Assembly (NCBI GenBank): GCA_965209055.1
Contig: OZ242374.1
Location: 5,760,001-5,824,000, forward strand
Source: Acidobacteriota bacterium
GTDB lineage: Bacteria > Acidobacteriota > UBA6911 > RPQK01 > JAJDTT01
Length of the DNA: 64,000 bases
Reading direction: 5' to 3'
Numbering within the stretch: the stretch's first letter is position 1; each line of letters opens with the position of its first letter. Of the stretch, positions 28,557 to 31,629 are shown piece by piece. The translations under genes and the position numbers were made by a program. The notes below the pieces were generated by a model. It had not been told where the DNA came from. It ran no database searches and was given only the letters and a program-made list of their open reading frames with translations.

Positions 28557-28571
28557 GCGGCCGCCAGTTTA

Positions 28572-28602
28572 ACAGCCCGTGGCAAGAGTCATCACCGACT
28601 GT
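28572..28602. repeat. Dispersed repeat, copy 1 (ACAGCCCGTGGCAAGAGTCAT...)
   Basis: 21 bp identical to 40567-40587; 28 of 31 identical when extended. Confidence 0.8.
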
Positions 28603-28609
28603 CAAACCG

Positions 28610-28651
28610 AAAGTCCCGCGCGGCACCGGGACCGATGCCGCGCGGGACTTT
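28610..28651 (-). terminator. Probable intrinsic terminator downstream of comEA
   Basis: 16-bp perfect stem AAAGTCCCGCGCGGCA / TGCCGCGCGGGACTTT with T-rich ends on both strands. Confidence 0.75.
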
Positions 28652-28725
28652 TATCAGGGACCGCCGGGTTCAGCGTCCTCGGAACCCCGCGCCTTGAGAA
28701 GACCGGAACGTTGCGGCACAGACCG

Positions 28726-29034
28726 CTACGGGCGCTTCGCCTGTTCCTTGGATGGAGTGGGGGTGGCCTTGACCATGATCCGGTCCCTGAGCCTCAGAAA
28801 AGTTTTCTCACCGATGCCCCGGACGTTCATCAGGTCTTCAATCCGCTTGAAGGCTCCGTTTTTCTCCCGGAACGCCACGATTCGCCTGGCGATTGCCGGT
28901 CCGACGCCGGGGAGAGCGTCCAACTCTTCCACCGTCGCCTGATTCAGATCCAGTTTGTCCGCAGCCGCCACATCCGGGCACCAGAGCCAGGGCATGGCCA
29001 TCAGCAAGGTCGAGAACAACAGAATCTTTCGCAT
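28726..29034 (-). CDS. comEA: ComEA-like helix-hairpin-helix DNA-binding protein
   Basis: AAGGAGG RBS, signal peptide, LDLNQATVEELDALPGVGP...IVAFREKNGAF...EDLMNVRGIG. Confidence 0.92.
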   Translation of the reverse strand: MRKILLFSTLLMAMPWLWCPDVAAADKLDLNQATVEELDALPGVGPAIARRIVAFREKNGAFKRIEDLMNVRGIGEKTFLRLRDRIMVKATPTPSKEQAKRP

Positions 29035-29057
29035 GTGCACCTCCTTATGGGTTGTTA

Positions 29058-29065
29058 TTTCGTTT
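29058..29065. repeat. 8-bp target-site duplication TTTCGTTT (left copy)
   Basis: Exact direct repeat of 30316-30323, immediately abutting the inverted repeat. Confidence 0.85.
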
Positions 29066-30315
29066 GGGAATTACAAAGTGCAGTTGACACTTTACAGTTC
29101 TGGCGCCACGCTCAGCCTACTGGCCCACGTTCCGGCGCCCAGGGCAAAATTCCCGGCCCTGAGAATGTTCAGGGCCGCGTTGTGGTCCCTGTCCATTCTG
29201 AGATCGCAGGCTGAGGAGCGATACGTCTCGCTCCTCCCAGGTCGATTCCTGACGCCACACCGGTGACAGTCCCGCGACGTGTATTTCGGGTCCACTTCCA
29301 CGAACTCCCGCCCGGCCCACTCTGCCTTGTACTGGAGTTGATTGCGGAGAATGCCCCAGGATTGAGTCGCAATCTCACGATTCAGGCCCTTCTTGTTCAA
29401 ACCCTTCGTGGTCATACCTTTGACGTTCAGTTTCTCGACGGCAATCCGGCCATGCTCCCGGATAATTCCGGTGGTATGCCGATGGCACACATTCCGGTTC
29501 CTGACTTTCTCCCGATAGCGGAGTCGGGCCAGTTGACGGACCCGCTTCTTTCGACGGTTCGACCCCTTCTTGCTTCTTGCGATCGCTCTCTGCTGCTGCC
29601 GGACCTCTGGCCAGTCTCTCCGGTTCCGTTCGATCCGTTCCCCAGTGGACATAACCGCCCGCTTGCGAACTCCAAGATCAATGCCCACCGCAGACGGGCA
29701 TTCCGGCAACGGTTCCTTCTCCACCTCGTAGACCAGATCGACGTAAACCCGATTCGGCTTGCGGACGATCCGCAACGCTTTCAGTTCACCTTCGGGCAGG
29801 GGTCGAGCAGGAAACAACCGAAGCGTGGGGAATCCCTTGATCCGGATCGCGAATCCGCACTTGCGCTTCTTCACCATCGTCGTCTTCGGGTCCACAAAGT
29901 CGATGGTCTCCATCCGCGCGATGGGCCGGAACCGGGGATGCCCCGGCTTCTCCCCCGCCTTGCAGCGACGAAAGAACGCTTGGTAAACCCGGTCCAATCG
30001 AAACAACATTCCCCTTTCGGCCTTGACAGCAATGGACCCCAGTCCTTCCGGGTCGGCCTTGCGCTTCCGGGTCAATCCCTTCATCTGGTCATACAGGGAG
30101 ACGCTTTTCCTGTCCTTCTCCCAGGCGTTCTTTCGCTCCTCCAGGGCGGAGTTGTAGAGACGGTTCAAGACGGACCGAATCCAGTCGAGACGCCGCACCC
30201 CATTCTTGGAGAGTTTCGCCCGGCATTGGAAAGTTGCGTGAGAAATCATTAGATGGATGAGTACTCAATTGGCATGACATTGGTCAACGCACGTCAATTA
30301 GTCTTTATAATTCCC
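29066..30315 (-). mobile_element. Non-autonomous IS1595-like element (TIR plus 8-bp TSD) carrying only tnpB
   Basis: 23-bp imperfect TIRs 29066-29088 and 30293-30315 (18 of 23 match, GGGAATTA..AAAG....TTGAC); 8-bp flanking direct repeat; no transposase inside. Confidence 0.8.
29092..30249 (-). CDS. tnpB: RNA-guided endonuclease TnpB
   Basis: N-terminal LYNSALEER, KPGHPRF; RuvC-I GIDLG, RuvC-II IAVEKL, V-x-P-x-Y-T-S plus CHRC zinc finger, RuvC-III DRDHNAALNI. Confidence 0.95.
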   Translation of the reverse strand: MISHATFQCRAKLSKNGVRRLDWIRSVLNRLYNSALEERKNAWEKDRKSVSLYDQMKGLTRKRKADPEGLGSIAVKAERGMLFRLDRVYQAFFRRCKAGEKPGHPRFRPIARMETIDFVDPKTTMVKKRKCGFAIRIKGFPTLRLFPARPLPEGELKALRIVRKPNRVYVDLVYEVEKEPLPECPSAVGIDLGVRKRAVMSTGERIERNRRDWPEVRQQQRAIARSKKGSNRRKKRVRQLARLRYREKVRNRNVCHRHTTGIIREHGRIAVEKLNVKGMTTKGLNKKGLNREIATQSWGILRNQLQYKAEWAGREFVEVDPKYTSRDCHRCGVRNRPGRSETYRSSACDLRMDRDHNAALNILRAGNFALGAGTWASRLSVAPEL

Positions 30316-30323
30316 TTTCGTTT
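30316..30323. repeat. 8-bp target-site duplication TTTCGTTT (right copy)
   Basis: Exact direct repeat of 29058-29065. Confidence 0.85.
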
Positions 30324-30375
30324 CCTATCTGAGCCTAACGTCCCGGGTGGAAAAAACGCGAAGCGGAGCGGCGGC

Positions 30376-31629
30376 TCACCCGGCAACTGGTGATTGGACG
30401 CCGTTGCAGAGATAGTCGAAAATTTCGTAGTTCCGGGCTCCCTGGGCCGCCCGGGACTCGTACTCGCCGCTCAGCGGTTCCGAGAGCAGCATGGGGACCA
30501 TCACCTCGTGGCGTCCGCCGTGGGACCGCAGGGGTTCGTTCAGGACGCTGAGATCGTGGTCGGCGGGGGTCTTCCCGATGACGGCGCCGGCGTCCGCCAT
30601 CACGACCAGATCGCCGATGCGGTCGGCCGGCAAATCCAGTTCCCTCGACGCCGCAGTGCGATCGTAGACTTCGTCGATGCCGGGCAGCCGGCGGATCCAA
30701 GCAGCCACGGAAGTGGTCTCCGCGGGTTCGGCCACGTGCACCATGACCGCCGAACCCAGGGATCCGTGATGAACGACGTAGGGGTCCGTGATGGGACAGA
30801 CCACTCGGTTCCCCTCTCCGAAACGGTCTCGCAGCAGAGATTCCAGATAAACGACGTTAGGGCTCCCGCCGGGTCCGGTTTTGGCGTTCATGCCGTGGTC
30901 AGCCGTCACTCCAACCCGGGCGCCGGTCTCCAGCAGCGCACCGATCTCCCGGTCCAGCGCCTGGTGAAAATCGAGCGACTGGTCAGACTCGGGAGGAAAT
31001 TTGTGCTGCATGTAGTCGGTCAGGGACAGAAAGAGAAAATCGGCCAGTTTCCTCTGCACGAGGCGGACACCGGCCGCCAGCACGAAGAGGCTGGCGCCGG
31101 CGCTGTAGATCTCCGGCTGCGGCCTGCCCACCAGGTCCTCCAGGTTCCCAATGCCGTGGGTCCCGACGGTGGCGGCCGCGGCCCGCTCCGATGAGAAGGC
31201 GATTCCATCCAGGTCCTTCGTCAGCAGGTCCCGAAGTTTTTCCTTGGCCGTCACCATCGCCACCTTCCTGCCGGCACGGGACGCTGCCGCCAGAATCGTG
31301 TCGCATCGGACATAGCGGGACGAGTTCATCATCAGCTCCCGGCCGGTCCGGGGATCGAGGAAGAAGTTGCCGCTGATCCCGGTGACGGAAGGAGGAACCC
31401 CGGAGACGATGCAGGCATTGTTCACGTTGGTGAAGGAGGGGAGGGCGCCCCGGACCACGGTCTCGAATCCGGCTTCAGCCAGACCGTCCAAATGGGGCAT
31501 GCGGCCGCGATTCCGGGAAACCTTCAGGTACTCGGGGCCGCATCCGTCGATGCAGACCACCGCCAGCGGCTTGGCCGGAGGCCGGTATTGCACTCCGTTG
31601 ACCCGGAAAGGCGTCGTGCTGATCCGCAT
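30376..31629 (-). CDS. phnA: Phosphonoacetate hydrolase
   Basis: VNGVQYRPP, VCIDG, PSFTNVNN, GISGNFF, TAKEKLR, SLTDYMQHK, TADHGMN, DPYVVHHG, LRSHGG. Confidence 0.9.
   Translation of the reverse strand: MRISTTPFRVNGVQYRPPAKPLAVVCIDGCGPEYLKVSRNRGRMPHLDGLAEAGFETVVRGALPSFTNVNNACIVSGVPPSVTGISGNFFLDPRTGRELMMNSSRYVRCDTILAAASRAGRKVAMVTAKEKLRDLLTKDLDGIAFSSERAAAATVGTHGIGNLEDLVGRPQPEIYSAGASLFVLAAGVRLVQRKLADFLFLSLTDYMQHKFPPESDQSLDFHQALDREIGALLETGARVGVTADHGMNAKTGPGGSPNVVYLESLLRDRFGEGNRVVCPITDPYVVHHGSLGSAVMVHVAEPAETTSVAAWIRRLPGIDEVYDRTAASRELDLPADRIGDLVVMADAGAVIGKTPADHDLSVLNEPLRSHGGRHEVMVPMLLSEPLSGEYESRAAQGARNYEIFDYLCNGVQSPVAG

Follow-up and report, generated by a model that had tools for sequence, protein, structure and literature searches.

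Cas12 descends from TnpB, a nuclease that also serves as a compact genome editor and whose biology has been worked out chiefly in IS605 and IS607 elements, whose excision is scarless. The tnpB gene examined here is the sole gene of a 1250-bp element bounded by terminal inverted repeats (TIRs) and an 8-bp target-site duplication (TSD), in a 64,000-nt stretch of contig OZ242374.1 (GCA_965209055.1) that is called the window below and whose positions give all coordinates unless stated otherwise. An original prediction on this DNA had proposed an RNA-guided nuclease carried by an IS1595-like transposon and mobilized in trans. Judged by its ends and insertion signature, the element is very probably a non-autonomous member of the IS1595 family whose sole cargo is tnpB and a guide-RNA (omegaRNA) scaffold, a reading to which we assign a probability of about 0.85; the same figure applies to the proposal that the TIRs are bound, and the element mobilized, by an IS1595 transposase acting in trans.

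Within the ISNwi1-like group of the IS1595 family, some insertion sequences (IS), termed "transporter" IS, carry passenger genes (Siguier et al. 2009, cited in PMC11891212). Common to that group and to the element described here are GGGG/GGGA-ATTAT inverted ends, an AT-rich 8-bp TSD and the carriage of a gene without a role in transposition. The present element differs in having no transposase inside and in carrying as its passenger an RNA-guided nuclease whose RNA scaffold overlaps one TIR; compared with IS1595 elements that bear a DDE transposase gene, it also shows an extra strand-specific G at the target. Among prokaryotic TnpBs, six DDE-associated branches (DDE-1 to DDE-6) with inverted terminal repeats have been reported, with IS630 named, together with solo TnpBs whose ends resemble those of transposase-bearing elements, suggesting mobilization in trans (Altae-Tran et al. 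2023, PMC10691335). The DDE partners of TnpB listed in a 2026 review are ISL2, IS630 and IS1031, and such associations are called rare in prokaryotes there (PMC13565253). As in the DDE-1 to DDE-6 branches, a prokaryotic TnpB lies here inside inverted repeats with the 3' end of its gene near the transposon end; in contrast to them, no cis-linked DDE gene was seen.

Fanzors occur in eukaryotic and viral transposons with TIRs and TSDs (PMC3627910; Fanzor1 and Fanzor2*, PMC10711439), where the TIR and the TSD lie within the RNA scaffold (PMC3627910, PMC10711439), and a pseudoknot adjoining the guide has been described (PMC10711439). Fanzor1 and Fanzor2* resemble the present system in that a TnpB homolog resides in a cut-and-paste transposon, often a non-autonomous one with a single gene, and in that the TIR is part of the guide-RNA scaffold. 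The short fixed TSD of Fanzor elements, however, is reported to belong to the scaffold or to the target-adjacent motif (TAM), with the guide following it, whereas here the scaffold ends at the TIR tip, the variable 8-bp TSD would make up the first 8 nt of the predicted guide, and the host is bacterial. The best natural relative with a solved structure is the TnpB of ISDra2, an IS200/IS605 element (PDB 8bf8/8exa/8h1j; E = 1.9e-29 over residues 30-372), which has the same D/E/D triad and, apart from the Ser at position 345 of the window protein, the same zinc-finger layout. Unlike the window element, ISDra2 has hairpin ends, no TIR, no TSD, a Y1 TnpA and a TTGAT target/TAM (as given in PMC13565253).

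The features of the element, with the basis of each assignment, are as follows.

29066..30315, minus strand: whole element, 1250 bp, tnpB-only and non-autonomous (TIR pair and TSD; orthologous site without the element in L041 and L042).
29058..29065, no strand: TSD copy TTTCGTTT on the right-end (tnpB 3') side, reading AAACGAAA in tnpB orientation (exact repeat; single copy in empty sites).
29066..29088, minus strand: right-end TIR GGGAATTACAAAGTGCAGTTGAC, also the 3' half of the terminal RNA hairpin, its last 5 nt forming the 3' pseudoknot strand (repeat comparison; covariation).
29046..29065, minus strand: predicted guide-encoding flank, TSD plus 12 nt, AAACGAAATAACAACCCATA (from the scaffold end at 29066).
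29066..29201, minus strand: omegaRNA-like structured RNA overlapping the tnpB 3' end and stopping at the last base of the element (covariance model R1, 132 bits).
29092..30249, minus strand: tnpB, 385 aa (Pfam OrfB_IS605, PF01385, and Cas12f1-like_TNB, PF07282; NCBIfam guided_TnpB).
30250..30292, minus strand: leader running from the left-end TIR to the start codon of tnpB (sequence inspection).
30293..30315, minus strand: left-end TIR, reverse complement GGGAATTATAAAGACTAATTGAC (repeat comparison).
30316..30323, no strand: TSD copy TTTCGTTT on the left-end (tnpB 5') side (exact repeat).
30324..30324, minus strand: G that directly precedes the left-side TSD when read in tnpB orientation; candidate TAM (position-wise counts for the base, its role being putative).

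Re-reading of the sequence reproduced the coordinates, the TIR sequences with their 18 identical positions out of 23, the exact 8-bp repeat and the tnpB gene with RuvC D/E/D residues given for this locus in the original prediction. The claim that no transposase lies within the element was likewise borne out, as inspection of the open reading frames (ORFs) of the element revealed no credible ORF besides tnpB between the TIRs, and the ORF and domain searches returned tnpB alone. An encoded DDE transposase with the IS1595 catalytic domain is absent from the element, so that membership of the IS1595 family is possible only as a non-autonomous element. The end consensus of the ISNwi1 group, ggnnatTAT, would fit the element ends. 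Taken alone, the short TIR pattern is not beyond chance (13-mer with at most 2 mismatches: 2 matches against 0.64 expected, with 2 or more in 14 of 100 shuffles). The 23-mer TIRs, with up to 5 mismatches allowed, were found in the 6.08-Mb genome only at the window element and at one 257-bp miniature inverted-repeat transposable element (MITE). A consensus scan of 28950-30450 for promoters, sigma-70-like ones included, and for terminators returned none, which carries little weight in this phylum, and a permissive Rfam scan of 28800-30500 gave 0 matches.

The insertion itself was resolved by orthologous sites in sister genomes. The spacer between comEA and the phosphodiesterase gene is empty in two of them, reading ...GGGT TTTCGTTT CCTATCTG... 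in L042 and ...TTTCGTAT... in L041, each with one copy of the 8-mer and no TIR, as the original prediction had anticipated for an empty site. Because both empty sites hold a single 8-mer, the repeat is a true 8-bp target-site duplication, and the element is shown to have inserted into an AT-rich 8-mer between the phosphodiesterase gene and comEA and to have duplicated it. An 8-bp TSD is the signature of staggered DDE-type strand transfer. Three more sister genomes are likewise empty at this spacer, with a diverged 8-mer. In a further sister genome, the orthologous comEA spacer holds an internally deleted tnpB element of another subfamily (L045, 2156-2805) with the TSD AAACCCAA, identical to the window element in position and orientation (...GATAGG|AAACCCAA|element|AAACCCAA). 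Two further species are empty at the L045-type site with a single AAACCCAA, and a third, tnpB-rich genome is empty there, its site reading GATAGA rather than GATAGG.

Related elements were collected in two overlapping sets that together gave 105 tnpB loci, 25 from a search of 41 genomes and 80 from a scan of species representatives. Among the 41 genomes, tnpB homologs (E <= 1e-30) were confined to the same genus, in 6 of its 9 genomes including the host's own, with up to 16 matches each. The 80 loci from the scan, at 43-94% identity, span Acidobacteriota, Bryobacterales, Terriglobia, Binatia, Caldilineaceae and Alphaproteobacteria (metagenome-assembled genomes). An automated test that called for TIRs of the GGG[GA][AC]TTATA type, flanked by 8-mers that agree in at least 7 of 8 positions, was passed by 55 unique elements (16 of the 105 loci being duplicates), 42 with exact TSDs and 13 with TSDs matching at 7/8. 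All 55 are 0.85-1.43 kb long, and their TSDs vary from copy to copy, in line with the expectation that other tnpB copies would share these ends with different 8-bp duplications. The next nearest homologs, at no more than 40% identity, are plasmid-borne (Bosea, Deinococcus); IS1595-type ends were not found at the two such outgroup loci examined, and the Bosea copy resembles IS605, with TTAC-flanked ends. The original prediction would have been undermined by close homologs with unrelated boundaries; IS1595-type ends occur among the loci at 43-94% identity and were lacking in the homologs examined at 40% identity or less. The window element is one member of a clade of tnpB-only elements that spans several phyla and shares its architecture.

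Candidates for the proposed partner, IS1595 transposases (PF12762/NF033547) in elements with matching termini and 8-bp TSDs, occur in the same genomes. A search of the host genome with the PF12762 (IS1595 DDE) profile returned 7 matches, around which 4 elements were delimited:

4799 bp, one copy: IS1595 element with TIR GGGGATTATACAGTTGACTAGG and TSD AATTGAAT.
3119 bp, one copy: IS1595 element with TIR GGGGATTATATACGAAAGTTCC... and TSD TTTCATTT.
2450 bp, two copies: IS1595 element with ends CGGAATTGTACGC... and TSDs AAAAAGAA and AAAACCTT.

The 4799-bp element encodes a 323-aa IS1595 transposase, matched by NF033547 at 177 bits and also by PF12762 and PF12760. In two tnpB-rich sister genomes, which hold 17 and 9 PF12762 genes, a 1762-bp IS that encodes a 335-aa transposase and has exact 8-bp TSDs has the TIR GGGGATTATATACGAAAGTGCCGAAA, and the tnpB elements have the left end GGGGATTATATACGTAAGTGCCGAGA, the two being identical at 24 of 26 positions. 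Additionally, a tnpB element and a 2100-bp DDE element in a Binatia genome share 14 of the 16 outermost TIR bases, and PF12762 scored above the cut-off in 4 of the 5 distant host genomes searched. One sister genome has 12 IS1595 elements and no tnpB, and the occurrence of IS1595 elements without tnpB fits a one-way dependence. Across the 68 DDE loci examined, 27 had exact TSDs and 41 gave no TIR/TSD call; TIRs were not found within the available flanks of L005 and several other DDE loci. As an observation in its own right, the 4.8-kb IS1595 element L006 (G000:C1:1716560-1721358) has perfect 22-bp TIRs and carries beside its transposase a 538-aa ORF of no assigned function and a small ORF, and is thus itself a "transporter IS".

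The host genome also holds a second tnpB copy, 76% identical in nucleotides, with its own related TIR pair and flanking 8-mers that have decayed to a 6/8 match. The 257-bp MITE (G000:C1:4815243-4815499, TSD TACCCTTT) has TIRs that are 3-4 mismatches away from the window left end and, of the tnpB 3'/RNA region, has kept about 100 nt with the GGGGA loop; on its left side a G precedes the TSD, as in the tnpB elements. A search of 5 genomes with the 130-nt right-end region revealed no further MITEs, all of its matches being tnpB copies already known, whether full or truncated.

Support for four helices and a pseudoknot at the right end comes from an alignment of 17-20 diverse elements over their final 140-200 nt. 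In the terminal hairpin, the 3'-most codons of tnpB are paired with the inner right-end TIR, one pair being changed on both sides in 9 of 17 sequences. In the pseudoknot, an internal GGGRW loop is paired with WYCCC, the final 5 nt of the element, with GC replaced by AU in 5 of 17. Over 32 pairs tested, 90.6% of 540 cells were paired, compared with 34-48% when partners were slid by 1-3 columns; double changes occurred in 15 of the 32 pairs, and in four of five measures none of 500 shuffles reached the observed value. A caveat to these figures is that the structure was partly derived from the same sequences in which it was then counted, and those sequences are related to one another and overlap coding sequence. 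The 150-nt region of the window, taken as a single sequence, folds at -63.5 kcal/mol (z = -3.26).

Covariance model R1, which represents the nested part of the structure, matched each of the 22 clade sources, and only one of these had served in its training. In 21 cases the match lay at the 3' end of the matched tnpB, most often ending at the TIR tip, and in L146 it lay 1.1 kb downstream. Matches to R1 were also found at the tnpB 3' end of the two outgroups, at 59 bits and, for the Deinococcus homolog, at 34 bits, and in none of 10 DDE-only sources. The right-end RNA probably corresponds, by its expected place and layout, to a TnpB omegaRNA whose guide is read from the flank and begins with the 8-nt TSD; a scaffold that ends at 29066 implies that the predicted guide starts with the adjoining TSD. 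The predicted 20-mer AAACGAAATAACAACCCATA is unique in the genome. Parts of the stretch are contained in 20 of 22 listed sequencing runs, and four metatranscriptome runs were examined as contigs. These contain related copies that are 90-99% alike, but contigs show neither strand, nor ends, nor transcription, and DNA carry-over is possible. A 3609-nt contig in runs X15 and X16 (depth about 70) leads from a different flank into the right-end-proximal ~270 nt of a related element, corresponding to 29059-29329, and then stops; a transcript over the RNA region and its flank would look alike, but contigs cannot show transcription.

If the guide consists of the TSD and its flank, a 5' TAM must lie directly before the left-side TSD, and a single conserved base was found at that position. 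With the elements oriented by tnpB and two rows dropped (the spurious pair L126 and the truncated copy L104), this base is G in 51 of 53 elements, 19/20 in the genus and 32/33 in distant clades, the exceptions being L031 (A) and L134 (C). Against a background G frequency of 0.32 the binomial P is 5.5e-23, with an n that should be taken as slightly below 53, as the L141 and L143 insertions look orthologous. The mirror position after the right-side TSD has no bias (C in 13/53). In the 27 DDE-bearing IS1595 elements with exact TSDs, G occurs 12 times on the left side and 5 times at the mirror position. The first TSD base is A in 40 and T in 4 of the tnpB elements, compared with A in 13 and T in 11 of the DDE-bearing ones; Fisher tests between the two groups gave 2.4e-7 for G and 6e-4 for T. 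At the occupied right junction, the corresponding position is always C, set by the TIR.

These observations can be joined in a tentative mechanism. An IS1595 transposase encoded elsewhere would bind the TIRs and mobilize the tnpB element, into whose right end the omegaRNA scaffold would be built, with the guide read through from the flank and starting with the TSD. TnpB would cleave a site that is unoccupied or has been restored precisely (G + TSD + right flank) and would spare the occupied junction, where the TIR supplies C, and such selective cutting would favor retention or homing of the element. That the conserved G is a TAM letting TnpB cut empty or restored sites has, in our estimation, a little less than an even chance. 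A similarly guarded view is taken of the wider proposal that this TnpB lineage co-evolved with IS1595 transposons, such that the TIR doubles as the omegaRNA 3' hairpin and pseudoknot strand, the TSD as guide nt 1-8 and a single G as the TAM. The G bias may have originated at insertion or through later retention.

The strongest competing explanation accepts an IS1595-type passenger but holds that the G is not a TAM and that TnpB is inactive on the empty site, the G reflecting an asymmetric target preference, an expression need or selection on host genes, and TnpB being perhaps regulatory. It has a substantial chance of being correct, if a minority one. Known TnpB TAMs are 4-5 nt long and T-rich, and a TAM of one base would be unusual. 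The DDE-bearing elements also favor G or C beside the TSD (22/27 on the left side), and the purine-rich flanks of one subfamily could indicate regions resembling ribosome-binding sites. Furthermore, it has been argued that cut-and-paste excision already leaves a break, so that homing would add little (PMC13565253). Set against these points, the G occupies the very position that a 5' TAM requires if the TSD forms the start of the guide, it is strand-specific, the mirror position being unbiased, and it is kept in distant clades while being absent as a bias from DDE-bearing elements with nearly the same TIRs. The invariant C at the occupied right junction implies self-avoidance, and the catalytic triad is kept in 21-22 of 22 aligned proteins. 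A Shine-Dalgarno origin of the G was rejected as the main cause, as only position -1 is fixed and comEA in the window keeps its own AAGGAGG 12 nt beyond the TSD.

Whatever the family does, the window copy might be a decaying relic without an active nuclease, which we consider unlikely on balance. Its protein scores 197 bits against NCBIfam guided_TnpB (NF040570; cut-off 100), and the RuvC triad D191, E272 and D355 is present in a full-length ORF. In the zinc finger between RuvC-II and RuvC-III, C328, C331 and C348 are present and position 345 is Ser, where 20 of 22 aligned relatives have Cys; codon 345 (29215-29217, minus strand) is TCC in the window and TGC in a 94%-identical relative. This substitution at a zinc ligand may have weakened the nuclease of the window copy and counts as a point against the preferred reading. 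The five mismatches between the 23-bp TIRs and the finding of one close tnpB copy per genome point the same way. On the other side, both TSDs are still identical, and the ratio of nonsynonymous to synonymous substitution rates (dN/dS) is 0.18 between the window copy and its closest relative. Across 8 pairs of clade copies, dN/dS is 0.13-0.25, which indicates purifying selection on the TnpB protein.

Several findings weigh against the reading of the element as an IS1595 passenger moved in trans. In the Caldilineaceae genome G042 (L145-L158), the exception among the five distant host genomes, there are at least 11 tnpB elements that are near-identical and have exact 8-bp TSDs, and PF12762 was not found above the cut-off in its assembly (best 24.7 bits); its partner transposase may be missing, lost or of another kind. 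A sister genome with six copies of the GGGGATTATAAAG subfamily has one PF12762 match, which carries a stop codon. No tnpB and DDE gene shared one TIR pair among the 55 elements, and 34 of the 105 loci failed the automated TIR/TSD test, some being truncated or having mutated tips. In the host genome, the resident IS1595 TIRs (GGGGATTATACAG..., GGGGATTATATACG...) match the window TIR over the outer 10-13 bp only. The earlier proposal of mobilization by an IS1595-type DDE transposase is supported by the ends, the TSDs and the co-resident transposases, with this short match to the resident TIRs as a qualification.

Such gaps would be accounted for if elements with IS1595-like ends were moved by something else, either an unrecognized transposase or TnpB-dependent recombination, and if the TIR similarity reflected the needs of the RNA. 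The Caldilineaceae copies and the lack of a cis-linked DDE gene fit this explanation, as does the constraint that RNA pairing places on the right-end TIR. The left-end TIR, however, lies outside the RNA and yet keeps the same sequence, co-resident IS1595 elements have near-identical TIRs (24/26) and the same AT-rich 8-bp TSD, and a duplication of this length is what DDE-type strand transfer produces. Another mover is accordingly regarded as improbable, and transposition by an IS1595 enzyme acting in trans is preferred.

The idea of an ordinary IS200/IS605 (IS1341-type) tnpB-only element, moved as single-stranded DNA by a Y1 TnpA and flanked by repeats through coincidence, can practically be set aside: TnpB is mostly found in IS200/IS605 or IS607 elements (PMC13565253) and two weak Y1_Tnp (PF01797) matches exist in the genome (30.8 and 23.6 bits, at G000:C1:1142970-1143203 and 3750831-3751106), but these lie far from both tnpB copies, the empty sites reveal a real 8-bp duplication, 55 elements combine TIRs with distinct TSDs, and the protein falls below the NCBIfam cut-offs for IS200_TnpB (159 vs 425) and IS607_TnpB (121 vs 350). 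Members of the IS200/IS605 family (IS1341 group) have no TIRs, no TSD, subterminal hairpins and a 4-5-nt target, and IS607 elements have a serine-recombinase TnpA, no TIR or TSD and ends in GG; the TIRs and 8-bp TSD of the window element, together with its 121 of 350 bits for IS607, place it in neither, no search having been made for a serine-recombinase partner. The two Y1_Tnp matches fall in frames of 307 and 394 aa, larger than the usual IS200 TnpA, and these may be RAYT-like.

Outside the element, the spacer between a 546-aa ORF and comEA contains, at about 28559-28610, a 25-40-nt sequence that recurs at 86-100% identity at dozens of sites across the genus, in all nine of its genomes, one of which has more than 30 matches. 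A perfect GC-rich palindrome, AAAGTCCCGCGCGGCA...TGCCGCGCGGGACTTT, adjoins it at about 28611-28653, and together (28559-28653) they look like a repeat of the repetitive extragenic palindromic (REP) type.

With respect to novelty, DDE-linked TnpBs and Fanzors in TIR transposons have already been published, and for IS1595 as the partner no report was found. The main text of PMC10691335 contains no mention of IS1595, ISXO2 or IS1016; its supplements list DDE branches and their ends, and one of these branches may overlap the present clade. Literature searches found no paper linking TnpB to IS1595 and 0 papers for TnpB with ISXO2, a result that those supplements could change. The suggestion that this is an undescribed association of TnpB with a transposon is therefore upheld for the IS1595 partner and has to be narrowed otherwise, as TnpBs in DDE transposons and solo TnpBs mobilized in trans are already contained in PMC10691335. 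The overlap of the RNA with the TIR and the strand-specific G appear to be new.

The value of TnpB to cut-and-paste DDE transposons is treated as an open question in a 2026 review (PMC13565253), and the clade described here offers a natural test case, with many copies in several phyla, clear boundaries, known empty sites and a candidate minimal TAM. A TAM consisting of G only, if real, would be an unusually permissive targeting rule, and the overlap of RNA and TIR would show a guide RNA adapting to the end sequence of a new transposase. Additionally, for tnpB genes that look "solo" by gene neighborhood, the ends alone can be enough to recognize the transposon family. Should the proposed mechanism hold, it would provide RNA-guided retention or homing for a DDE transposon, as a prokaryotic counterpart of the Fanzor arrangement, and TnpB activity would act as a filter on which insertions survive and in which orientation.

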